Counted from the first letter of the stretch, positions 120 through 14,854 are shown. The stretch is DNA of 21,538 nt from a virus (IMGVR_UViG_2740892229_000015), one strand, 5' to 3'. The notes: a model not told the origin generated them from the sequence alone. Numbers and translations: made by a program.

Positions 120-272
120 GAAAATAAAGGGATAACGATGATAGTTTGAGAAAAACAGAAATAACACTTTTGTGGCAAAGCNNNNNNNNNNGGCCACGCC
201 ATGCGCAGCCGGAAATAAAGGGATAACGATGATAGTTTGAGAAAAACAGAAACAACACTTTTGTGGCAAAGC
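100..272. repeat. Two near-identical copies of an ~80-bp sequence (100-181 and 192-272) flanking an N run; most likely overlapping contig ends or repeat variants
   Basis: Direct comparison: ggcc(g/a)cgccatgcgcagcc(g)gaaataaagggataacgatgatagtttgagaaaaacagaaa(t/c)aacacttttgtggcaaagc. Confidence 0.6.
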
Positions 273-458
273 ATGGTGCCGGGTGCCTCCCGGTGAATTC
301 AGTATCAGCACCTGAATCCGCGATTATCCCATATACCTGGTTGCTGATCGCCCCTCCGCACAGGGGGATTCACCATGCAGAAGTGTTTTTAATAAACAGC
401 AAACAAAAAAATCAANNNNNNNNNNAGTAGTATTTTTAATAAACAGTAAACAAAAAAA

Positions 459-626
459 TCAAGCATTATGCAGGCTGTTTCTTTTTATCACCGGCCACAG
501 CAATACCACAATGCCGCAGACCAGCACCCCATCCGCCAGCACCGACATGATTCTGCTGGTGAAATCCACCATCACCACCAGAAACAGCAGGAGTGCAGCC
601 ACAGCCAGGCGCAGTTTTACCGTCAC
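459..626 (-). CDS. Small hydrophobic protein (55 aa, GTG start; VTVKLRLAVAALLLFLVVMVDFTSRIMSVLADGVLVCGIVVLLWPVIKRNSLHNA), predicted two-helix membrane peptide
   Basis: Hand translation of the minus strand; GGAG 8 nt upstream of GTG; GTG overlaps the TGA stop of the upstream TerB-like gene (GTGA coupling); below the 60-aa ORF-track cutoff. Confidence 0.35.
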   Translation of the reverse strand: MTVKLRLAVAALLLFLVVMVDFTSRIMSVLADGVLVCGIVVLLWPVIKRNSLHNA

Positions 627-1054
627 AGGTGATTCTCCAGACGAAGACCCAGAACACCGGCAATCTCTTCCAGCACCTTGCGCTCTTCCGGCTCAATTTC
701 GCCGTCTGCCTCCGCAATGGCCACCGCCACATCCAGCACATCTTCCGCTTCACGCGTATCGTGTTTCACATCCTCAATCTCGCGTAACGCGGCACGACGA
801 CCAATTTTAAAATTGGTATCCAGCTGACCGATAATAGTTGCGCTAATCGCATTAATTTCCGAGGTAAACGCAGACAACGCAGGCTGATTACGTAAGACCT
901 GTTCGATCTTCGCTTTCTCGGATGCCTCGCATTCACCATCTGCATAGGCCACCAGGTATGCAGCGTTAATCACCGCCTGTGCCAGATCGCGTTTCTCAAA
1001 CTTTTTAATTTCCGCTGCCGCTCTGCGGGTTTTCTTTTTGAAGATTCCAAACAT
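623..1054 (-). CDS. TerB-family (tellurite-resistance TerB-like) protein, 143 aa; start taken at MFGIFKKK rather than the longest ORF start at 1126
   Basis: ORF track 623..1126; AAGGAA RBS 7 nt upstream of the internal ATG at 1054; C-terminal VAIAEADGEIEPEERKVLEEIAGVLGL resembles the TerB signature (recalled from E. coli TerB). Confidence 0.6.
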   Translation of the reverse strand: MFGIFKKKTRRAAAEIKKFEKRDLAQAVINAAYLVAYADGECEASEKAKIEQVLRNQPALSAFTSEINAISATIIGQLDTNFKIGRRAALREIEDVKHDTREAEDVLDVAVAIAEADGEIEPEERKVLEEIAGVLGLRLENHL

Positions 1055-1186
1055 CGTGACGTTCCTTTGGGTGGGTGAGCCAACGCCCGGGAGCGATCTG
1101 CCCACAGAGAAAGTCACACTGACCACTCCGTAAGCTCACCCCCGAAAGGCTCTGTGGTTGATATGCGCCGGGCGTGGCGCAGATAC

Positions 1187-1210
1187 AAAAAAGGCCCGCC
1201 GAAGCGAGCC
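1187..1210 (-). terminator. Candidate Rho-independent terminator just 3' of tRNA-Arg(TCT): hairpin ggcucgc-uucg-gcgggcc followed by UUUUUU on the minus strand
   Basis: Read directly from the sequence. Confidence 0.4.
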
Positions 1211-1223
1211 TGGAAAATAAGTG

Positions 1224-1300
1224 TGGCGCGTTGTAGTGGAGTCGAACCACTGACCGATTGCTTAGAAGGCAATTGCTCTGTCCGGCTGAGCTAACAACGC
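1224..1300 (-). tRNA. tRNA-Arg, anticodon TCT (77 nt, CCA encoded), phage-type rare-codon tRNA
   Basis: Hand-folded cloverleaf: acceptor GCGTTGT/ACAACGC, anticodon loop CTTCTAA, T-loop TTCGACT, 3' GCCA. Confidence 0.8.
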
Positions 1301-1313
1301 AGAATTCCGATAA

Positions 1314-1332
1314 TGGACCGCCATCGGGGACC
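1314..1332 (-). other. About 19-nt remnant of the 3' end of tRNA-Arg(TCG) (tggaccgccatcggggac), diverging from the intact gene afterwards; a similar remnant lies at 1413-1430 in the next piece
   Basis: Identical to the 3' end of the intact tRNA at 1525-1543, then unrelated sequence. Confidence 0.55.
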
Positions 1333-1495
1333 CGCCCCATAAGCGCTAACTTAAGGGTTGTGGTATTACGCCTGATATGATTTAACGTGCCGATNNNNNN
1401 NNNNACCGATAATGGACCGCCATCGGGGACCCGCCCCCGCACCAACAACCCTGTTATGGTGTCGTCTGCTCTTCCTGATAAGCTANNNNNNNNNN

Positions 1496-1511
1496 ACTGA
1501 GCTAACAACGC
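1496..1511 (-). other. 5' fragment of a tRNA-Arg(TCT) copy truncated at the contig start
   Basis: actgagctaacaacgc matches 1285-1300 of the intact tRNA-Arg(TCT). Confidence 0.6.
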
Positions 1512-1524
1512 ATGATGCTGATAA

Positions 1525-1601
1525 TGGACCGCCATCGGGGACTTGAACCCCGCGCAGCCAGCTTCGAAGGCTGGCGCTCTGTCCCGATGAGCTAATGGCG
1601 G
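1525..1601 (-). tRNA. tRNA-Arg, anticodon TCG as folded by hand (77 nt, CCA encoded)
   Basis: Acceptor CCGCCAT/ATGGCGG, anticodon stem CCAGC/GCTGG, loop CTTCGAA, T-loop TTCAAGT; anticodon call depends on my manual fold. Confidence 0.65.
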
Positions 1602-1610
1602 TATGTGATA

Positions 1611-1686
1611 TGGTGGCCCTTGCTGGATTTGAACCAGCGACCTGGCGATTATGAGTCGCTCGCTCTCACCACTGAGCTAAAGGGCC
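1611..1686 (-). tRNA. tRNA with anticodon CAT (76 nt); sequence and context fit the phage ileZ-type tRNA-Ile2 (lysidine) rather than tRNA-Met
   Basis: Cloverleaf: acceptor GGCCCTT/AAGGGCC, anticodon loop CTCATAA, T-loop TTCAAAT, 3' ACCA; sits downstream of Q like the ileZ-argN-argO cluster of Stx-type phages. Confidence 0.75.
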
Positions 1687-1825
1687 GGGAGCAGAATAAT
1701 AACGGTCCGTAATTAATTCCGCAATAAAAAACCCGCTCAATGGCGGGTTCTGGTAAAGTTCATGCGTTTGGTTCGCCTCGCGATACAGCTTTGCGAAGCT
1801 TACCGGAATTGAAGCAGTTTTTACG

Positions 1826-2380
1826 TCAAAAAGCAATAACTTTTTTCTCTATACCAAAAGCCATAACCATTGGTTTGTACAAAATAAATTCTGCCACCTT
1901 TAGCCAATGCTCAATGCGTCTTTCACAGGTTCTTAAACTCCATTCCGGATGTGCATCATTCAGCAGTTCAGCCATTTTGCGCTTAGTCATCCCCCGCCCC
2001 ACATAACGCTGACTCAGAACATTGAGCAGCCCGGGATAACCTGCCAGTACTTCACCAATAACCCTGTCGATTATTAACGCCTCTGAATCGGTACAATGCA
2101 CCAGCCAGCTTTTTTGCTTGCCGTTGATCATATCCCGCAAAAAAGCCTCAAGTTTAGGTTTGTCCAGACCTGCTTTTTTCATCCTCCGGAGCGCCTCGTT
2201 AATTGCCGTTTTTGTCAGCTTTTTAGAGGTCAGCAACTGGTTGAACATATTTCCCGTCTTACCGCCGCCAATATACGACCAGCGCCCCCACATACGTAGT
2301 TTCCCCTGAATCCAGACACTTTCCAGCGTGGTGAGACGAAGGTGCTCTCCGCTTTTTCCTGTGTTCGTTGGGTAAATCAT
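1826..2380 (-). CDS. Lambdoid late-gene antiterminator Q-like protein (184 aa from MIYPTNTGK)
   Basis: ORF track 1826..2500; internal ATG at 2380 has a GGAGAAAGGA RBS and overlaps the upstream stop (ATGA); position between nin-region genes and the tRNA cluster. Confidence 0.55.
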   Translation of the reverse strand: MIYPTNTGKSGEHLRLTTLESVWIQGKLRMWGRWSYIGGGKTGNMFNQLLTSKKLTKTAINEALRRMKKAGLDKPKLEAFLRDMINGKQKSWLVHCTDSEALIIDRVIGEVLAGYPGLLNVLSQRYVGRGMTKRKMAELLNDAHPEWSLRTCERRIEHWLKVAEFILYKPMVMAFGIEKKVIAF

Positions 2381-2667
2381 AAATAACCGTCCTTTCTCCA
2401 GATCTCTTGTGTGCGAAAAACACCTTCTGCATGCATCAGGCGCAATTCTTCTTTGGTGTAATCGCTGGTTTTTACTCTCCCGTCGATTAAATCGTGGCAT
2501 GAGTTACAGGCAATCGCTGCCTGCATATCGTGTGGCTTTATCGCTGTTCCGCACGTTCCCGCCAGCCTGTAATGCGCCAGCACAGAGGTTTCGGGATTGT
2601 GATTGCAGTAGCCAGGGATTCTGATCTGGCATATCTGGCCTTTAGCCGCTTTACGTAAATTCACCAT
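2377..2667 (-). CDS. YbcO-like (DUF1364) Cys-rich lambdoid nin-region protein, putative nuclease, 96 aa
   Basis: ORF track; cysteine pattern CQIRIPGYC...ACNSCHD recalled as YbcO-like; start overlaps the upstream stop (TAATG). Confidence 0.65.
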   Translation of the reverse strand: MVNLRKAAKGQICQIRIPGYCNHNPETSVLAHYRLAGTCGTAIKPHDMQAAIACNSCHDLIDGRVKTSDYTKEELRLMHAEGVFRTQEIWRKDGYL

Positions 2668-3266
2668 TACGCAAACTCCAGTAGTTGTGCGGCCACATTT
2701 TCAACTTCCTCCTGAGAGGAGAATTTACGGAACAGAATCCAGTTCCACAGCACATTCAGTACAGATTTATAAACCTGCTGAAACTCGACTTCGTCCATAT
2801 TCGCAAAAGCGATGGATTTTGCCCGACGCCCACGGCTACCGTCCGGATAAATATGCTCGGTGTAAAATCCGGCCTGAATGGTTACCCACTCGCGGAAAGC
2901 CTCAAACGACTTTAGCAACGCCGTATCCCGGGTTCTACGAGTCGCAACGGTGTTAAGGTATTGCTCTGCGGCATCACTCAGGGCTGGCGTGTGTTCCCGA
3001 CCAACTGATTCGCACAGGTAATCAACGAAACCAGACAGCAGTTCTCGTTCGCGAGGCGTGATCGCCCCACCGACCGGAGTCCAGTAATCGAATCCCAGTT
3101 GCAGGAGTTTGAAAAAACGCTTGTGGAATGCGTAGTTACGCACACGCTTAAAATCTGCGTGTATCCACTCACCTATTTTGATTTGATGCAGAAAATCGCA
3201 ACTCTCCGGCGTCGCCGGGAGAAGTAAACCAGAAGAAGTTTGTTTGACCAGTTGTATATGCGCCAT
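2667..3266 (-). CDS. Conserved lambdoid nin-region protein of unknown function (199 aa; possibly DUF1367-like)
   Basis: ORF track; tightly coupled to the YbcO-like gene; family assignment is from memory only. Confidence 0.5.
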   Translation of the reverse strand: MAHIQLVKQTSSGLLLPATPESCDFLHQIKIGEWIHADFKRVRNYAFHKRFFKLLQLGFDYWTPVGGAITPRERELLSGFVDYLCESVGREHTPALSDAAEQYLNTVATRRTRDTALLKSFEAFREWVTIQAGFYTEHIYPDGSRGRRAKSIAFANMDEVEFQQVYKSVLNVLWNWILFRKFSSQEEVENVAAQLLEFA

Positions 3267-3685
3267 TTCTCAATCTCTCGATGGCGCAGTGCAGCAGATG
3301 CCAGTTGTTCAAGCTAGCACGCAAATTGTAAACCAGAATGCCAGGAAAAAACAAAACCCGCCGAAGCTGGTTGTGTGCGGTTGCGTTGAAGTCTCCTAGC
3401 CAAAGAGTAGCGGTGACCACTCCCCGCCGATAATCTTAGTTGTTTAATTTCGTAAGCTAACTAGGCTAAAAGCTCTCTGTTGTCTGCCTGTTGTACAATT
3501 AACAAAATGAACAACGAACTAGATATACCAACGCCAGAATGGTGCAACAAATCCCAAACAACACAGCAATGCAACAATAACATATGTTATTTTCCTCTCA
3601 CGGGATTCAGTCCTGAATTCTCATAAAGCTAATCTTTTTTTAAAAACATACTGTTAGATCACATGCACTTTCTTTCTTAACATCG

Positions 3686-3713
3686 TTGACTTCGCATGCG
3701 AAGCGTTTAAAAT
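3686..3713 (+). promoter_or_regulatory. Candidate sigma70 promoter TTGACT-N16-TAAAAT with a perfect 14-bp palindrome cttcgcatgcgaag (3690-3703) in the spacer; about 50 bp upstream of the GHKL ATPase gene
   Basis: Hexamers and palindrome read directly. Confidence 0.4.
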
Positions 3714-3765
3714 CAACAATTTGCACTTAAGGTATTTATTTTCCCAAACACATAGAGAGTAAATT

Positions 3766-5157
3766 ATGACTGAGAACACGACTCCAACAGCAGACTTTAG
3801 TCCTAGTAAAAGATTTTTTGTAAGTATGCTAACTCGAGATATCGACTTAAACGATGCCATACTTGATCTGCTTGATAACTGCGTCGATGGGGCTTTACGT
3901 ACAATAAAAGACACAAAAAAAACTTCAAAACCATATGAAGGATTTTATGCGAAACTTACGATTAATAAAGATGTCTTTATTATAGAAGACAATTGCGGAG
4001 GTATCCCTAAAAGCTTCCGAGAATATGCTTTTAAAATGGGACGACCCCATCAAAAAGAAGAAGAAAATGAAGGCACCGTTGGCGTCTATGGTATTGGTAT
4101 GAAAAGAGCCATTTTTAAAATGGGTAGAGATTGCTCAATACAATCGAATAATCCCGATGGCGCATTCACTGTAGATATAACACCTGATTGGATCGATGGT
4201 GATGGTTGGAAAATACCGATGCACGAGAGTGACTATGATAACAAAAATCCAACAGGCACAACTATAGAGATAAAAAAACTCCATTCTAATGTGGCACAAA
4301 AATTTAATGAGAGCACATATCTTACTGATCTCTTTTTACAGATAAAACACTCATTGTCATTTATTATTCAAAAAGGATTTAAAATAGAATTAAATGGAGT
4401 TGTTGTTGAACATAATCCGATTAACATCATAACTGATCATTCTAAAATAGAACCATACATATATAAAGCTAAAATAGACGATGTTGATATCGATTTAGTT
4501 GTTGGCTTCTATAAAAATTTAGAAGATGACAATGATGATGTTTTAGAAAAAAGGAGTTCTGATGATGCTGGATGGACTGTCATTTGCAATGACCGCGTTG
4601 TTCTATATTGTGATAAGACACATCTCACAGGTTGGGGCTTTGCTAATGTACCAAGGTTTCATACCCAATTTATAGCAATTTCTGGGGTTGTTCGCTTTAC
4701 CAGTAAAAACCCAGAAAAATTACCAATAACAACAACGAAACGAGGTGTCGATCTTAGTTCTACATTGTACAATGATGTACGAAATAAAATGATTGAAGGG
4801 ATGATGCATTTTATTCGATTCACCAATCAGTGGAAAGGTGAGCATCTTGAAGAAGGGAAAAAATTACTTAAGTCAGCTCAGTCACATGAAGCTCAATCTT
4901 TATTTGAAATTACCCCACAATCAACTCCAGAAGATAAAAAAAATAACTGGTCCAACCCTAATAGAAACAAAAATGAGTGGCGATATACACCTAAGCTGCC
5001 TACCCCAGTAAAAAAAAGCTCTACTGTACGAATAATCTTCACCAGAGAGAAAGAAGATGTTAAAATTTTATCTAAATATTTCTTTGGACATGAAGATGCT
5101 AGCGCTTCTGATGTGGGGATGCAATGCTTTGATACGGTGATTGAAGAGGTGAAGTGA
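3766..5157 (+). CDS. GHKL-superfamily ATPase, MutL/MORC-like (463 aa)
   Basis: ORF track; Bergerat-fold motifs in order: N-box DLLDNCVDGA, G1 IEDNCGGI, G2 GVYGIGMKRA; GAGAG RBS; AT-rich codon usage unlike the flanking prophage genes. Confidence 0.85.
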   Translation: MTENTTPTADFSPSKRFFVSMLTRDIDLNDAILDLLDNCVDGALRTIKDTKKTSKPYEGFYAKLTINKDVFIIEDNCGGIPKSFREYAFKMGRPHQKEEENEGTVGVYGIGMKRAIFKMGRDCSIQSNNPDGAFTVDITPDWIDGDGWKIPMHESDYDNKNPTGTTIEIKKLHSNVAQKFNESTYLTDLFLQIKHSLSFIIQKGFKIELNGVVVEHNPINIITDHSKIEPYIYKAKIDDVDIDLVVGFYKNLEDDNDDVLEKRSSDDAGWTVICNDRVVLYCDKTHLTGWGFANVPRFHTQFIAISGVVRFTSKNPEKLPITTTKRGVDLSSTLYNDVRNKMIEGMMHFIRFTNQWKGEHLEEGKKLLKSAQSHEAQSLFEITPQSTPEDKKNNWSNPNRNKNEWRYTPKLPTPVKKSSTVRIIFTREKEDVKILSKYFFGHEDASASDVGMQCFDTVIEEVK

Positions 5158-6146
5158 TGTCTGGACAATACATTCCCTATCACTTAAGGCATAATAAGTC
5201 TATTGATAGAGAGATTTTTCTCGAAAGCCTAAACCTCTTAAGCAAAAGACTAAATATTCAAGAATATACATATATAGGTTTTGGTGGTCCGATGCTTGAA
5301 GATTTTAGAATCATGCATAATCGTATCGCTCTTTCTGATATGATTTCTCTCGAAGAACAAGAGTCTACTCACATCAGACAAAAATATAATTTGCCTTATA
5401 ATTGTATTGATTGTAAGCTAATATCAGCTCATGACTTTATTCTTGATTATAGTTTTTCTAAACCATCAATAACATGGTTAGACTATGCCTCCCCGAAAAA
5501 AATACAAACGGATCTAGATGATATACACTTACTAAGTACTAAAGTAAGCTCTTTTGATATTTTGAAGGTCACCTTCCCCATAAATCCTAGTTCTTATTAC
5601 CAACGTAGAGTTGGAGAAAGTTTAGATATTTTTAAAGAAGCTTTTATTAATTCATTAAAATCATTGCTTGGGAAAAAGTATCTTGATTTTAATCTTCAGA
5701 TATCAAATGCAGATCTTTCAGATCGTAAGATTAAAGCTCTTTTAATACGAATTATTACAAACGCTTTTAGATCAGCAATAGAACGTGGTCTTTCAGGACG
5801 TAAGGATAAGATTCAGTATTACCCATTATCCTTAAATCAATATAATGATGGCAGTCATACCATGTTGACAATATCAGGTTTTTTCTCCTCAGAACAAGAA
5901 TATATAGAGTTATCTAAGGCATGCGACCTTTCTAACTGGCAATTTTATTCAACAAATTGGGAAGACGTGCAAGAAATAGCAATACCAACACTAACAATTA
6001 AAGAAAAGATAAATTTAGATAGTAAACTGCCTGATAAAGAAGCATATCAGGCAGCCGCTGAAGAGTTCTCTTTAAACGAAAATGAACGGGATAACTATTA
6101 TAAATACTATAGGTTATACCCTAACTTCCAAAGAATTATGGTTTAA
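5157..6146 (+). CDS. Protein of unknown function (329 aa), translationally coupled to the GHKL ATPase; possible effector of the cassette
   Basis: ORF track 5154..6146; ATG at 5157 overlaps the ATPase TGA (TGATG); GAGGTG RBS; no motif I can recognise. Confidence 0.75.
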   Translation: MSGQYIPYHLRHNKSIDREIFLESLNLLSKRLNIQEYTYIGFGGPMLEDFRIMHNRIALSDMISLEEQESTHIRQKYNLPYNCIDCKLISAHDFILDYSFSKPSITWLDYASPKKIQTDLDDIHLLSTKVSSFDILKVTFPINPSSYYQRRVGESLDIFKEAFINSLKSLLGKKYLDFNLQISNADLSDRKIKALLIRIITNAFRSAIERGLSGRKDKIQYYPLSLNQYNDGSHTMLTISGFFSSEQEYIELSKACDLSNWQFYSTNWEDVQEIAIPTLTIKEKINLDSKLPDKEAYQAAAEEFSLNENERDNYYKYYRLYPNFQRIMV

Positions 6147-7265
6147 ATATTCGGGCTGTACTCTTTTATTTAATAAATTGTACAGCCCCTTTAATATATA
6201 TTCAGCAACTATTGGTGACACGCTATTTCCTATTTGTCTGAAACTATGCCATTTAGTTACATGAAAGCGAAACCAATCAGGGAAGCCTTGTAATCTAGCA
6301 GCTTCTCTTGGTGTAATCACTCTTGGATGATAAGGGTGGATCGGCCTGACGGCTTGAAAGCTTCCTTTATCTCTAGCGGTTCCCGCCCTTAAAGTCGGGC
6401 AAAAACCATTTGGATCTAATCTTGTAGATCTTGAAATTTTATCAGTTTCCCCAAAAGATAAGGAAGCATAACGCTCTTGGACGATTTTGCTATGTAATGT
6501 TCCGGTACATCCAGATATGATATTATTTTTTAACTTAGCGATCGATTCTGTATCACCAACATTCCGAGGGATCTGCCCCCATAATTTTTCATAAAATCCC
6601 CCTTTTCGATCTTTTTTAATTGTTCGCCAACTCTCAGAGTCTGATTGCCAATTGGCATCGATAATATCTGGTAATCCATACAAAGCATCTTTTACAGTAA
6701 CCGGATCAATCATTTTAGGCATAAATACTTCATCTGAAATATCAAGCTTCAATGATTTTTTTACACCGATAAAAAAATATCTAGTTCGAATAGTTGGAGC
6801 ACCATAATCAGATGCTTTTACCTTGATGGGATCAAGAATATCATAATCACCGCTAACCAAATTAAATGCTTTATTTCTAATGCCAGAATATTTCTCTTGC
6901 ATAATACCTGGAACATTTTCTGCCAAAAAGAATAATGGCTGTAATTCTGATACTAAACGGTAGAAATGCATGTAAAGCTGATTCCTGCTATCATCAGGAT
7001 TCCCCTTGCCTATTGAACTAAATCCTTGGCACGGAGGACCGCCAATAATACCATCTATGGGCATATCGTTTTTAAAAAAACCCTTAATTATTTCTGCATT
7101 TAGTAAAGAAACATCTTCTTGGACGTGCAAACTTCTTGGAAAATTAATTGCGTGAGTATTAATAGCATGTTGATCAATTTCAACTGCCATTTTAACATCA
7201 AATCCAGCACGTGCAGCACCAAGACTTAGACCTCCAACGCCAGAAAACAAATCTATTACATTCAT
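6114..7265 (-). CDS. DNA (cytosine-5)-methyltransferase (383 aa)
   Basis: ORF track; canonical C5-MTase motifs: I FSGVGG, IV GPPCQGFS (catalytic Cys), VI ENV, X QIGNSVSP; 3' end overlaps the convergent 329-aa gene by 33 bp. Confidence 0.9.
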   Translation of the reverse strand: MNVIDLFSGVGGLSLGAARAGFDVKMAVEIDQHAINTHAINFPRSLHVQEDVSLLNAEIIKGFFKNDMPIDGIIGGPPCQGFSSIGKGNPDDSRNQLYMHFYRLVSELQPLFFLAENVPGIMQEKYSGIRNKAFNLVSGDYDILDPIKVKASDYGAPTIRTRYFFIGVKKSLKLDISDEVFMPKMIDPVTVKDALYGLPDIIDANWQSDSESWRTIKKDRKGGFYEKLWGQIPRNVGDTESIAKLKNNIISGCTGTLHSKIVQERYASLSFGETDKISRSTRLDPNGFCPTLRAGTARDKGSFQAVRPIHPYHPRVITPREAARLQGFPDWFRFHVTKWHSFRQIGNSVSPIVAEYILKGLYNLLNKRVQPEYLNHNSLEVRV

Positions 7266-7297
7266 ATAGTTGCAACGTCTCTTATTAGTTTCTATGT

Positions 7298-7306
7298 ATT
7301 ATAACA
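7298..7306 (-). promoter_or_regulatory. Candidate extended -10 promoter (TGTTATAAT on the minus strand) about 30 nt upstream of the methyltransferase ATG
   Basis: Read from the reverse complement of 7298-7306. Confidence 0.35.
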
Positions 7307-7517
7307 CAACTGTTCTTGATGTTTTAACCCCATAAGATAACCTCATAAAGGCTATCCCTTGAAAATACCGGATCGCATAAATTTAATCTTTCAAAACTAC
7401 TTGTCTATTAATCGAGCAATTTAAGGTTGTTTTAGTCATGTCGATACCGACATAGTTAACTAAACCCATTTCATCGTCCAACAAATGGGGGTAATACACT
7501 TTGATTTATAGTCGGGT

Positions 7518-7622
7518 GGGTTTTTCTCTATCTGCCTTTGGTGTTCATGCCCAAGGCAGATAGCCTCAAGCACCCGCAGCAATTCTACTTAACTATCCTT
7601 TTCCCGCAAATCGTTTTTATCC
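7518..7622. repeat. Copy 1 of a ~105-bp conserved element (imperfect palindrome atctgcctttgg...ccaaggcagat plus shared core agcctcaagcacccgcagcaattctacttaact); copy 2 at 8438-8543
   Basis: Direct comparison of the two loci. Confidence 0.6.
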
Positions 7623-7700
7623 CCAGCGGCAAATCGAATACACAACCAGCGCCACCGCCATCGCAATTCCTACCGTTGTGAATGCTTCAGGCCAGGTCAT
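7617..7700 (-). CDS. Small hydrophobic peptide, 27 aa (MTWPEAFTTVGIAMAVALVVYSICRWG)
   Basis: Hand translation; ATG overlaps the TGA of the upstream ORF (ATGA); paralogue of the peptide at 8713-8796. Confidence 0.4.
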   Translation of the reverse strand: MTWPEAFTTVGIAMAVALVVYSICRWG

Positions 7701-8120
7701 CGTGAAACATCCTCCACGCTTATAAGTCCGCTTCGCTCCAGGTAGTCCATCACTTTATCCGGCAATTTGCAGCCCGGTTTCGCTTTCTTCAGTTGACTAA
7801 CCAATTGTTTAACCAGCATTGTCAATTCGCGAACTTGTTTCCCGGGCTCCCCTTTGCCCTGAAGCAGGGCAGCGCGGCAAGCGTTCCATCCCTCAGCATA
7901 TGTTTCAGTTACACCATCGAGATGGCATGTAAGCAAATCCATTTCTTCCGGCACTACGGGCGCTGGAAAAACGGCATAGGGTGGCGTCCATTTTGGCGCT
8001 TTATCTCCAGCCGAACGCTGCTACCAGTCATCCGGTTTGTATTCATAAAAATCACCAACTGGCTCTGCTTCCAGCGATGCCAGCGCAATCCGTGCCAGTT
8101 CCATTTGTTCACCACGGGTA
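7697..8120 (-). pseudogene. Paralogue of the 289-aa prophage protein at 8793-9662, interrupted by an in-frame TAG (8021-8023) and truncated by the contig end; the downstream 85-aa segment is in the ORF track
   Basis: 7981-8120 is nearly identical to 9537-9620; hand translation gives ...EAEPVGDFYEYKPDDW-stop-QRSAGDK...VPEEMDLL. Confidence 0.35.
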
Positions 8121-10506: not shown

Positions 10507-10783
10507 TCACAACAGCACCTTCTGAAAATTACCCTGATAGAAAGCCAGTACACGCTGCATAGCTTCGCTCTTCCGGCACTCGCTACAGATTATGTTCAGA
10601 CGCCTGTCGTAGCGGCGTATTTCTCCGTCTGGTAATGACCAGATAAGATCCGGATCAACCACAGATGGTTTCTTCACCTTTGCCCTAGATAGTTTTTTGC
10701 GGGCATTTTGCCAGTCCTTACGAGCCTGTTCAGACGGGAATAACCCGTAACCAGAGTTGTATACATCGCCACTGGCAACCAGC
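10507..10783 (-). CDS. C-terminal fragment of a prophage gene truncated by the N run (...DGEIRRYDRRLNIICSECRKSEAMQRVLAFYQGNFQKVLL-stop)
   Basis: Hand translation of the minus strand, open to the contig end; a paralogous copy lies at 12677-12953. Confidence 0.5.
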
Positions 10784-10793
10784 NNNNNNNNNN

Positions 10794-11278
10794 GTTCATT
10801 TCCTACAGATCTCAGTGATATTTCTGTTGGTCTATATTCTCAACCTCGAATCGAGTGGATTTTATGGCAGAGTTTAATGAATAGAAAAGAACTTGCCAGA
10901 AATGTGATTTATAGTGATTATGGAGTACAGCACCCCGACTTTAATAGGCTTTCGACGCGATTCCCTAGCGTATCTGCCAGCGTCAGATACTCTGGAGATA
11001 ATGACTTTTGGGTATTTCGAGGAAGAGTAGCTAATCGCTTTGGTTATGAACAATATGGTAAACATAGTGAGGATATTCTTGCTCATCGAGAATATTCAGG
11101 GCCTACATTCTGTGCGGGAGATAGAGACATAGAATATTATGCAAACGAGTATCAAGCCTACAAAGCCAATCCCTCTGGTAACTATAAATTTGGTAGCCCA
11201 GAGGTATGGCGTAGGATTGGGCAAAACCATCACATAACTAAGGTTGTTGAGCAACTCGCCACTCTTTACGGGCTTTAA
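10794..11278 (+). CDS. Partial or complete CDS of unknown function: frame is open from the contig start, with a possible internal ATG at 10877 (133 aa); convergent with the nuclease-like gene
   Basis: ORF track 10757..11278 (its N-terminus spans the N run and is artefactual); AT-rich. Confidence 0.35.
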
Positions 11279-12680: not shown

Positions 12681-12953
12681 CGCACCACCTCCTCAAAATT
12701 CCCCTGATAAAACGCCAGTACGCGCTGCATAACTTCGCTCTTCCGGCACTCGAGACAGATTATGTTCAGACGCCTGTCGTAGCGACGTATTTCTCCGTCA
12801 GGTAATGACCAGATAAGGTCCGGATCAACCGCAGATGGTTTCTTCAGCTTTGCCCTTGAGAGCTTTTTACGGGTATTTTGCCAGTCCTTACGCGCCTGTT
12901 CAGACGGGAATAACCCGTAACCAGAGTTGTATACATCGCCACTGGCAACCAGC
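12677..12953 (-). CDS. C-terminal fragment of the paralogue of the 10507-10783 gene, truncated by the N run
   Basis: Near-identical DNA to 10507-10783 with scattered substitutions. Confidence 0.5.
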
Positions 12954-12963
12954 NNNNNNNNNN

Positions 12964-13670
12964 GAACCGCCCCGGAAATCCTGGAGACTAAACTCCCTGA
13001 GAAAGAGGTAAACAGGATGACTAAAAATACTCGTTTTTCCCCCGAAGTCCGTCAGCGGGCGATTCGTATGGTTCTGGAAAGTCAGGATGAATATGACTCA
13101 CAGTGGGCGGCAATTTGTTCCATTGCCCCAAAGATTGGCTGTACGCCGGAGACTCTGCGTGTCTGGGTTCGCCAGCATGAGCGGGATACCGGGAGTGGTG
13201 ATGGTGGACTCACCACCGCTGAACGTCAGCGTCTGAAAGAGCTGGAACGTGAAAATCGTGAACTGCGCCGCAGTAACGATATCCTTCGCCAGGCTTCCGC
13301 TTATTTTGCGAAGGCGGAGTTCGACCGCCTCTGGAAAAAATAATGCCTCTGCTGGATAAGCTGCGTGAGCAGTACGGGGTCGGACCGGTATGCAGTGAAC
13401 TGCATATTGCCCCGTCAACGTATTACCACTGTCAGCAACAGCGACATCATCCTGATAAACGCAGTGCCCGTGCGCAGCGCGATGACTGGCTGAAGAGAGA
13501 GATACAGCGCGTATACGATGAAAATCATCAGGTATACGGTGTGCGTAAAGTCTGGCGCCAGTTGTTACGCGAAGGTATCAGGGTGGCCAGATGTACAGTG
13601 GCGCGCCTCATGGCGGTTATGGGACTTGCCGGTGCTCTCCGGGGTAAAAAGGTCCGTACTACCGTCAGCC
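12964..13670 (+). mobile_element. IS3-family insertion sequence, left part only (IRL, orfA, first ~110 codons of orfB); homology to the other copy ends at ~13670
   Basis: Terminal repeat gaaccgccccgg at the contig start; orfA/orfB in -1 frame arrangement; transposase resembles IS629/IS3411-type as I recall. Confidence 0.8.
13017..13343 (+). CDS. IS3-family transposase OrfA (HTH, 108 aa)
   Basis: ORF track (its N-terminal residues spanning the N run are artefactual); GAGG RBS; leucine-zipper-like C-terminus. Confidence 0.9.
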
Positions 13671-13690
13671 GATTTACGGGCCGTAAGTAA
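13343..13690 (+). pseudogene. IS3-family transposase OrfB, truncated: diverges from the intact copy after ...KKVRTTVSR and stops 5 codons later
   Basis: Comparison with 13972-14854. Confidence 0.7.
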
Positions 13691-13971
13691 CGAAGTTGGA
13701 TGCAAATGTCAGATCGTGTGCGCCTGTTATGGCTCGGCTGGTAAGAGAGCCTTATAGGCGCATTTGAAAAAACTCCAGCTATACCGGAAGATATTTATTA
13801 TTAACAGGAGAGGTTTGCTTTTCTGTGTAGGTTTAGATTTTGTGTTTGCAGGGTAAACAAAACTGATTAACTCGTCATTTCGGTAACTGAAATAGTTTGC
13901 TGTTGGATTTGCCCCTATATTTCCAGACATCTGTTATCACTTAACCCATTACAAGCCCGCTNNNNNNNNNN

Positions 13972-14854
13972 ACTGCTGGATAAGCTGCGTGAGCAGTACG
14001 GGGTCGGACCGGTATGCAGCGAACTGCATATTGCCCCGTCAACGTATTACCATTGTCAGCAACAGCGACATCATCCGGATAAACGCAGTGCCCGTGCGCA
14101 GCACGATGACTGGCTGAAGAAAGAGATACAGCGCGTATACGATGAAAATCACCAGGTATACGGTGTGCGTAAAGTCTGGCGTCAGTTGTTACGGGAAGGT
14201 ATCAGAGTGGCCAGATGCACTGTGGCACGTCTCATGGCAGTTATGGGACTTGCCGGTGTTCTCCGGGGTAAAAAGGTCCGCACTACCGTCAGCCGGAAAG
14301 CCGTTGCCGCATGCGACCGCGTAAACCGTCAGTTCGTGGCAGAACGTCCAGACCAGTTGTGGGTGGCTGATTTTACCTGGGTAAGCACATGGCAGGGCTT
14401 CGTTTATGTGGCGTTCATCATTGATGTGTTCGCCGGATACATCGTGGGATGGCAGGTCTCATCATCCATGGAAACAACATTCGTGCTGGATGCACTGGAG
14501 CAGGCGTTGTGGGCCCGTCGGCCGTCCGGCACAATCCATCACAGTGATAAAGGTTCTCAGTATGTATCGCTGGCCTACACGCAGCGGCTTAAGGAAGCCG
14601 GATTACTGGCATCAACAGGGAGTACTGGCGACTCGTATGACAACGCGATGGCTGAGAGCATCAATGGTCTTTACAAAGCGGAGGTAATACACCGTAAGAG
14701 CTGGAAAAACCGGACAGAAGTGGAACTGGCCACACTAACGTGGGTGGACTGGTATAACAATCGACGATTGCTGGAAAGGCTGGGCCATATTCCTCCGGCA
14801 GAAGCAGAAAAAGCTTATTATGCTTCCATCGGAAATAATGATCTGGCAGCCTGA
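13972..14854 (+). CDS. IS3-family transposase OrfB (DDE integrase core), 5' end lost in the N run
   Basis: ORF track 14165..14854 plus open frame back to the contig start. Confidence 0.85.

Follow-up and report, generated by a model that had tools for sequence, protein, structure and literature searches.

Repeated tRNA 3' fragments in a prophage ileZ-argN-argO cluster probably stem from a decayed argN paralogue, once split by IS186

Integration into tRNA 3' ends, with duplication of 15 to 25 nt, is a common mechanism, and ptwF and pawZ of K-12 are tRNA 3'-end fragments found at prophage attachment (att) sites. The tRNA cluster of phage 933W is called ileZ-argN-argO, presumably after Plunkett et al. 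1999, and it is from this source and the GenBank annotation of 933W that we name the cluster described here; a search on ileZ/argN/argO in the literature covered gave nothing relevant, only author names and unrelated tRNA-fragment papers. IS186, among the most active insertion sequence (IS) elements of Escherichia coli, uses GGGG(N6/N7)CCCC as its almost exclusive target, can insert there both ways around, and hits the same sites again and again; its hot spots in K-12 include fimA and menC (Lee et al. 2016, PMC5009759). We analyzed a 21,538-nt stretch of viral DNA, IMGVR_UViG_2740892229_000015 (referred to as the window), in which a tRNA cluster of the 933W type is accompanied by extra copies of a tRNA 3' end. 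We conclude, with a probability of roughly 0.88, that these remnants are explained by a decayed argN paralogue in sister prophages, present once in an IS186-split and once in an uninterrupted form.

The window consists of 11 pieces separated by ten runs of exactly 10 N, and the tRNA finding covers three of them: piece 3 (426-1394), piece 4 (1405-1485, 81 nt), and piece 5 (1496-8120). An intact argN-type tRNA-Arg(TCG) gene lies on the minus strand of piece 5 (1525-1601; called by ARAGORN, 58.2 bits in Rfam, 97.1% identity to 933W argN). Its 3'-terminal 18 nt including CCA, TGGACCGCCATCGGGGAC, are found exactly at 1525-1542 and again at 1314-1331 and 1413-1430 (expectation from 100 shuffles, 0.00). 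The stretch common to all three copies measures 23 nt, 5 nt of 3' flank included, and pieces 3 and 4 are identical over 32 nt. A sequence-only reading of this DNA had noticed the recurrence at 1314 and 1413 and is borne out in that respect, with the length corrected from 19 to 18 nt. It had also described "different sequence" beyond the fragments, which is indeed present, but had missed the causes: piece 3 runs into an end of IS186/IS421, and piece 4 continues into the rest of a putative argN pseudogene.

In piece 3 the fragment comprises the 3' 24 nt of that pseudogene (1314-1337, minus strand), truncated by the IS at a junction identical to the one in L002; L002 and L133 are two prophages of the complete genome 2013C-4991, and L006 is from O157:H7 NE 1169-1. 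The IS is represented by the terminal 57 nt of IS186/IS421 (1338-1394, plus strand), which include the 23-nt inverted repeat CATAAGCGCTAACTTAAGGGTTG and match nt 4-60 of the K-12 IS186A feature at 100%; piece 3 stops there because the contig ends 57 nt inside a multicopy IS. At the homologous place in complete genomes, the Prokaryotic Genome Annotation Pipeline (PGAP) reports an IS4-like IS421 family transposase. The full arrangement can be followed in L002, where tRNA-Arg(TCT) is succeeded by a 13-nt spacer, the 24-nt tRNA-like 3' end, a 1,338-bp IS, ∼56 nt of tRNA-like sequence, a spacer, and tRNA-Ile. This IS matches K-12 IS186A at 99.9% and is bounded by perfect inverted repeats of 23 nt. 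A 10-bp direct repeat, GGACCCGCCC, stands on both sides of the IS in L002 and L003, and window positions 1328-1337 hold one copy of this target-site duplication (TSD); the other IS186 end, with the right-hand junction, was looked for in the window and not found. In L003 the IS occupies the identical position with the same repeat, in the opposite orientation and next to a different flanking single-nucleotide polymorphism (SNP). Both orientations counted, the junction of pseudogene and IS is found in 18 complete genomes from unrelated sources.

Piece 4 holds the corresponding empty-site allele: 73 of the 80 nt of the uninterrupted pseudogene (1413-1485, minus strand), recognized by identity to L133 and L006, with the piece ending 7 nt before the pseudogene 5' end. 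Its first base included, piece 4 is matched at 100% by L133 2521-2601 and L006 3501-3581, which in both prophages fall in the 100 bp, without annotation, that separate tRNA-Ile from tRNA-Arg. When the IS and one copy of the repeat are taken out of L002, the empty site is restored, of which piece 4 is an exact substring except for its first base. The empty site reads GGGG-ACCCGC-CCCC (N6; 1425-1438 in piece 4), whereas the T-arm of the intact argN, GGGGACTTGAACCCC (1537-1551), reads GGGG-ACTTGAA-CCCC (N7); a motif scan of the window for GGGG(N6/N7)CCCC returned these two sites only, both in this T-arm. The IS-split and the uninterrupted forms coexist in 2013C-4991, one in L002 and the other in L133, in agreement with the earlier suggestion that one genome can hold several variant copies of the cluster.

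The 80-nt element can be aligned with argN from end to end. Placed in register with argN and with the tRNA-"Lys"(TTT) allele of other phages, it agrees with them in its 5' acceptor strand, its D-arm, and its 3'-terminal 18 nt (five clusters). Its anticodon arm is unrecognizable, and its T-arm is GGGGGCGGGTCCCC where argN has GGGGTTCAAGTCCCC. ARAGORN, at default and at lowered (-ps) thresholds, called no tRNA on the reconstructed empty site; when it was run on all 25 unique middle-slot forms described below, the five pseudo variants likewise went without a call. Rfam model RF00005 gave no match to the middle element at E<=10, and a hand search of the 80 nt for an anticodon arm (5-bp stem, 7-nt loop) yielded at best 4/5 pairs with a noncanonical loop. 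The predicted fold is four-armed and cloverleaf-like (-31.3 kcal/mol, z = -1.9), with a G-rich T-loop region of 5-6 nt (GCGGGU) that lacks the canonical TTC, and without a 7-nt anticodon loop.

Elements in the middle slot, collected from IMG/VR and from species representatives and genomes, number 128 in 25 unique forms: 68 are pseudo forms (five variants), 55 are Arg(TCG) by call, 2 are Lys-like, and 3 are otherwise degenerate. The T-loops of copies still called Arg(TCG) range over TTCAAGT, TTCGAGT, TTCGGGT, GTCGGGT, and GGCGGGT. The last of these belongs to form e18, which combines an intact TCG anticodon arm with a pseudo-type T-loop and is thus an intermediate. The acceptor stem and D-arm are invariant across all variants seen. 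The commonest pseudo variant (e00) differs from the window form by a C-to-G change that breaks a predicted pair of the central hairpin without compensation, and no covariation was found among the five variants. The uninterrupted pseudogene occurs in 1,643 of 5,426 complete E. coli genomes (∼30%), with no annotated feature over it among the 30 matches listed; that standard pipelines leave it unannotated in so many genomes is a small by-product of the analysis. In a scan of species representatives, the element was all but confined to Escherichia, which gave two matches; one degenerate copy came from Citrobacter. Our reading is that the middle element is a decayed argN paralogue, produced by neutral decay of a redundant prophage tRNA and not a conserved new RNA; model rejection suggests that it would lack function and give no chargeable tRNA.

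Some other middle-slot copies deserve mention in their own right. Many ARAGORN-called tRNA-Arg(TCG) prophage copies have T-loops without the conserved A58 or T54 (TTCGGGT, CTCGGGT, GTCGGGT, and GGCGGGT); examples are IMG/VR L012, L017, L019, L034, and L094 (e09, e12, e16, e18, and e23), and all substitutions are toward G. Judging from their sequences, these copies are probably nonfunctional already, despite their annotation as tRNAs. A 74-nt degenerate form in Citrobacter amalonaticus P55 (L129 2-75) has an intact T-loop and no proper anticodon arm, and in its central part it is similar to the E. coli pseudo form. L009 2576-2641 is another degenerate middle-slot form, a 66-nt deletion derivative.

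IS186 has also entered the T-arm of intact argN genes. Such insertions are present in two IMG/VR sequences (L130 9864-9908 and L132 3840-3884) and in one complete genome (NZ_CP148275.1, ∼1690163-1690237); the interrupted T-arm reads GGGGACTTGAACCC|CATAAGCG. Since a T-stem of GGGG/CCCC with a 7-nt loop constitutes GGGG(N7)CCCC, any tRNA with such a T-arm is an IS186 target, and recurrent insertions there are an expected consequence of the known specificity of this IS. It is fairly likely that argN, whether intact or decayed, offers IS186 in its GGGG/CCCC T-arm an intrinsic target that is hit recurrently and that insertions into it repeatedly inactivate the prophage tRNA slot. Such a hot spot in a tRNA T-arm is a second small by-product of the analysis. 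A statement that a tRNA T-arm is an IS186 target was not found in the literature searched.

The relations between the pieces follow from their alignment to complete genomes. Pieces 1-5 map collinearly, with overlaps, onto one prophage type (L133/L006): pieces 1 and 2, 2 and 3, and 3 and 4 overlap, and piece 4 falls within the stretch that piece 5 covers. Only four positions in 426-1338 distinguish piece 3 from L133 (428, 432, 447, and 1306, the last T versus A), and piece 4 starts exactly at the 1306-equivalent SNP, with the A allele. Piece 5 from ileZ onward is 100% identical to L133 and differs only at 1513-1609, where it holds an intact argN of the CB9615 type; its first base (1496, A) has no counterpart in the complete-genome hits, whose alignments all begin at query base 2. 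Of the four positions at which piece 3 departs from L133, three are found within 22 nt of its left end, and the ends of the contigs seem to hold errors or branch-point bases. Complete E. coli genomes contain a median of 3 copies of the argO region, and as many as 25. Thus, pieces 1-5 are alternative assembly-graph branches from several near-identical prophages, and their order, being that of overlapping branches, does not show linkage; reference-guided ordering is probably what laid them side by side.

The sequence-only reading had itself offered another explanation, an att-like duplication, in which the fragments would be core copies (attL/attR) produced by integration into the 3' end of tRNA-Arg(TCG). 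Integration at tRNA 3' ends is common, and the shared stretch is 18-23 nt long and includes the CCA end. However, the fragments in L002, L006, and L133 lie inside the prophages, with the Q-like gene and tRNA-Ile on one side and tRNA-Arg and the TerB/lysis genes on the other; beyond the 18-mer, homology extends to the tRNA D-arm and 5' acceptor strand, as in a full-length gene in a syntenic slot; and the divergent sequence of piece 3 is IS186 with its own TSD. The integrase search that the att idea prompted found no tyrosine or serine phage integrase among 20 open reading frames (ORFs) in the window (Pfam), a result that holds for this fragmentary stretch and not for the whole genome; the sole integrase-core (rve) match belongs to an IS3-type HTH_Tnp_1/rve transposase. 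The interior position, the lack of an integrase in the window, and the homology past the core led us to reject att-site duplication, whose probability we put close to nil. It was also conceivable that the remnants were assembly artifacts, chimeric or erroneous contig ends without real counterparts. Contigs joined by N10, with neighbors overlapping as diverged copies, invite this suspicion, as do the unmatched first base of piece 5 and the composition of piece 3, which combines an L133-type left part with an L002-type junction allele and might be a collapsed-repeat chimera. Yet the piece 3 junction (71 and 199 nt) is 100% identical in five finished genomes, and piece 4 is found at 100% identity in many. 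Because both sequences exist in finished genomes, they are real, and only contig order and linkage are artifactual; that the fragments themselves are spurious is highly improbable. An insertion polymorphism, with piece 4 derived from the same prophage lacking the IS in part of the culture, would suit the high activity of IS186 and its repeated hits at motif sites (PMC5009759) and the otherwise complete identity of pieces 3 and 4 over 32 nt. On the other hand, the A of piece 4 and the T of piece 3 (1306) are the alleles of the separate prophages L133 and L002 in 2013C-4991, which makes a mixed culture unlikely, although this counterargument hangs on a single base at a contig end.

A different question is whether the 80-nt element is maintained as a tRNA-like RNA within a Q-dependent late transcript, for example, for RNase P/E processing or as an insulating element between ileZ and argO. 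Its presence in uninterrupted form in 30% of complete E. coli genomes, the invariance of its acceptor stem and D-arm, and the predicted four-arm fold are what maintenance might look like. However, every tRNA model applied rejects the element, the z-score is unremarkable, e00 breaks a predicted pair uncompensated, and covariation is lacking; IS insertions in the element persist in 18 genomes, and a graded decay series joins it to intact argN. The conserved ends are explicable by recent descent and recombination among prophage copies, and we regard a maintained RNA as very unlikely.

The explanation that we prefer, a decayed argN paralogue in sister prophages, has several points standing against it. 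The prophage copy number and the linkage of pieces 3, 4, and 5 are deduced from related complete genomes. A simple de Bruijn (k-mer fork) model fits the left end of piece 4, which starts at an SNP, and does not fit its right end. For the middle slot of piece 5, a genuine exchange of alleles and an assembler crossover at the ileZ repeat are both conceivable. Pseudogene nonfunction is argued from model rejection and from one variant that breaks a pair without compensation, and the replaced anticodon region could reflect point changes or recombination with another allele.

With a decayed paralogue as the cause, the events can be pictured as follows. The source would be an E. coli strain with several near-identical lambdoid prophages, and the window a scaffold of its short-read contigs. 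In each prophage, the Q gene and a tR'-like terminator would be followed directly by a tRNA module of three slots, ileZ, a middle slot, and argO; this module would be transcribed within the Q-dependent late transcript and may supply tRNAs for the rare codons ATA, CGA/CGG, and AGA/AGG. The middle slot would contain intact argN in one copy (piece 5) and, in others, the 80-nt decayed paralogue, which has kept the acceptor stem and D-arm and lost the anticodon arm and T-loop. In one prophage, IS186/IS421 entered the decayed T-arm at GGGG(N6)CCCC and duplicated GGACCCGCCC, giving piece 3; another kept the empty site, giving piece 4. The "3' tRNA remnants" would then be the 18 nt that intact and decayed middle-slot genes still share, and contigs would break at graph forks formed by the multicopy IS, the T/A SNP at 1306, and the repeated argO body.

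Turning to the cluster as a whole, ARAGORN and Rfam agree on three tRNA genes, which lie on the minus strand downstream of a Q-like gene and whose anticodons are, in order, CAT, TCG, and TCT; all three exceed 29 bits, the gathering score of the Rfam tRNA model (RF00005). The folds and anticodons that had been proposed from the sequence are thus upheld by both tools. The argO-type tRNA-Arg(TCT) is in piece 3 (1224-1300, minus strand; ARAGORN; 67.3 bits) and is annotated by PGAP as tRNA-Arg in L002, L006, and L133, and the ileZ-type tRNA is in piece 5 (1611-1686, minus strand; ARAGORN; 72.5 bits). ARAGORN reports the latter as "Met"(cat), its default, as it cannot separate Ile2(CAT) from Met; the identical gene is tRNA-Ile according to PGAP in complete genomes and ileZ in the 933W record. 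Going by these labels, the CAT tRNA is probably of the Ile2 type (predicted to be lysidine modified and to read AUA), not Met. What is contiguous on piece 5 is ileZ, argN, and the first 15 nt of the argO-type gene (1497-1511, minus strand), cut by the contig end, which is the 5' tRNA-Arg(TCT) fragment that had been seen at the start of this piece. Its identity is fixed by an exact 16-mer match, CTGAGCTAACAACGCA, at 1286-1301 and 1497-1512 (0 expected). The full argO body lies on piece 3, and its apparent adjacency to the Ile and Arg(TCG) genes of piece 5 does not place it in their prophage; piece 5's own argO fragment shows that argO follows argN in that copy of the cluster. Against phage 933W (AF125520.1), window positions 1496-1700 are 97.1% identical over 204 nt, with argN, ileZ, and argO as the features beneath, so that the likeness to Shiga toxin (Stx)-type lambdoid phages noted earlier holds. 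At least 80% of the cluster query is spanned by 283 phage records, mostly Stx2 phages, and the closest complete-genome match is an O55:H7 prophage (99.5%) with a tRNA-Ile and two tRNA-Arg genes. By sequence, then, the cluster is the well-known ileZ-argN-argO set of lambdoid/Stx phages.

The flanks of the cluster agree with this identification. Directly downstream of argO is a terminator-like GC hairpin with a T-run (1192-1211, minus strand; terminator scan). Between ileZ and the Q-like gene, a tR'-like hairpin (AACCCGC...GCGGGTT) is followed by UUUUUUAUU (1722-1751, minus strand), and folding of 1687-1800 on the minus strand gives a 9-bp hairpin and then a U-run; we infer that this hairpin corresponds to tR'. 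The cluster adjoins the Q-like gene on its downstream side, with the hairpin between them, and in complete genomes it is followed by TerB, DUF3927, esterase, holin, and lysozyme genes. This layout would fit the standard arrangement in which the tRNAs are part of the Q-dependent late transcript.

Pfam scans of the window ORFs identify an early-to-late region of a lambdoid prophage on the minus strand, in the order cI-like repressor, P/DnaT-like replication genes, DUF1367, YbcO, Q-like DUF1133, tRNAs, TerB family, and DUF3927. The Q-like antiterminator gene (1826-2500, minus strand) matches DUF1133 (E 1.7e-105) and Phage_antitermQ (E 7e-8); for the identical genes in L133 and L006, PGAP selects a start that gives a shorter gene of 555 nt. 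Beyond argO, piece 3 continues downstream with a TerB-family (tciA-like) gene and a DUF3927 gene (459-1126, minus strand; TerB E 6.8e-16, DUF3927 E 4.3e-17), for which phage annotations use the names tciA and tciB. Downstream of the DUF3927 gene, piece 2 has a strong match to the small RNA STnc100 in Rfam (235-407, minus strand; 104.7 bits, with gathering at 47 bits; E 4e-23), with a partial diverged copy in piece 1 (101-181); two diverged copies of the 3' flank of the match are found in pieces 1 and 2.

Farther along, piece 5 includes a low-GC three-gene cassette (3766-7265; GC 40% versus ∼50% in neighboring pieces), with DUF1367 on one side and the upstream early genes on the other. Its products are a HATPase_c_3 protein (463 amino acids), a Methyltransf_35 "putative O-methyltransferase" (330 amino acids), and a convergent C-5 cytosine DNA methylase (383 amino acids). 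The methylase matches PADLOC type II methyltransferase models (E 2e-98), and PADLOC gave no match for the other two genes. In the prophages of O157:H7 NE 1169-1 and 2013C-4991, the start of the cassette is matched at 100% over 3401-5100, the extent of the compared loci, which takes in the greater part of the HATPase gene. The cassette may be an unclassified restriction- or defense-like moron. An IS3-family element with HTH_Tnp_1 and rve ORFs (12927-14854) extends over pieces 8 and 9 and is interrupted by N10 gaps. An ORF at 10757-11278 with a C-terminal Beta_protein match (PF14350) reads through the N gap at 10784-10793, so that its reading frame is partly a scaffold artifact.

The cluster carries little biological weight, being textbook for Stx/lambdoid phages, and all the sequences concerned have 100% matches among finished RefSeq genomes. 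Two further practical points can be added. Drafts of multi-prophage E. coli that are joined by N10 can set paralogous branches side by side and so mimic "duplicated remnants" and false clusters. In addition, the T-arms of tRNAs with GGGG/CCCC stems are natural IS186 targets, and this offers a simple explanation of how the prophage tRNA discussed here is lost again and again.

How does this locus compare with the described systems? Being brief, exact copies of a tRNA 3' end that are located apart from the intact gene, the fragments recall ptwF and pawZ; unlike those two, which mark an element boundary next to an integrase and duplicate the att core only, the window fragments are interior and continue into a full-length homologue or an IS. 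The IS186 insertion resembles those at K-12 hot spots in the IS involved, the exact motif fit, the duplication of the core with flanking G/C, the use of both orientations, and the independent recurrence at one site. Unlike at fimA and menC, IS186 has here struck a prophage tRNA gene or pseudogene, in its T-arm. Within the middle slot, the nearest relative of the decayed form is the tRNA-"Lys"(TTT) of phage Evi and E. coli RM14723, which lies in the same ileZ-argO slot and has the same acceptor stem, D-arm, and 3' end. "Lys"(TTT) alleles are still called by ARAGORN and PGAP, whereas no tool calls the 80-nt form of the window. Separately, we observed that the "Lys"(TTT) allele (L004 3113-3189 and L001 3895-3971) does not by itself fold into a cloverleaf (minimum free energy of -19.8 kcal/mol, z = -0.8) and that a T-stem mismatch is visible on reading the sequence by hand; this allele, too, may be a decaying or unusual tRNA. 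Finally, the cluster agrees with that of 933W in its three anticodons, their order, the strand, and its site directly downstream of the Q gene and terminator. It departs from 933W in having TerB/tciA-like and DUF3927 genes downstream instead of stx, in having its argO body on a separate contig, and in having sister copies with a decayed middle gene in the same genome.

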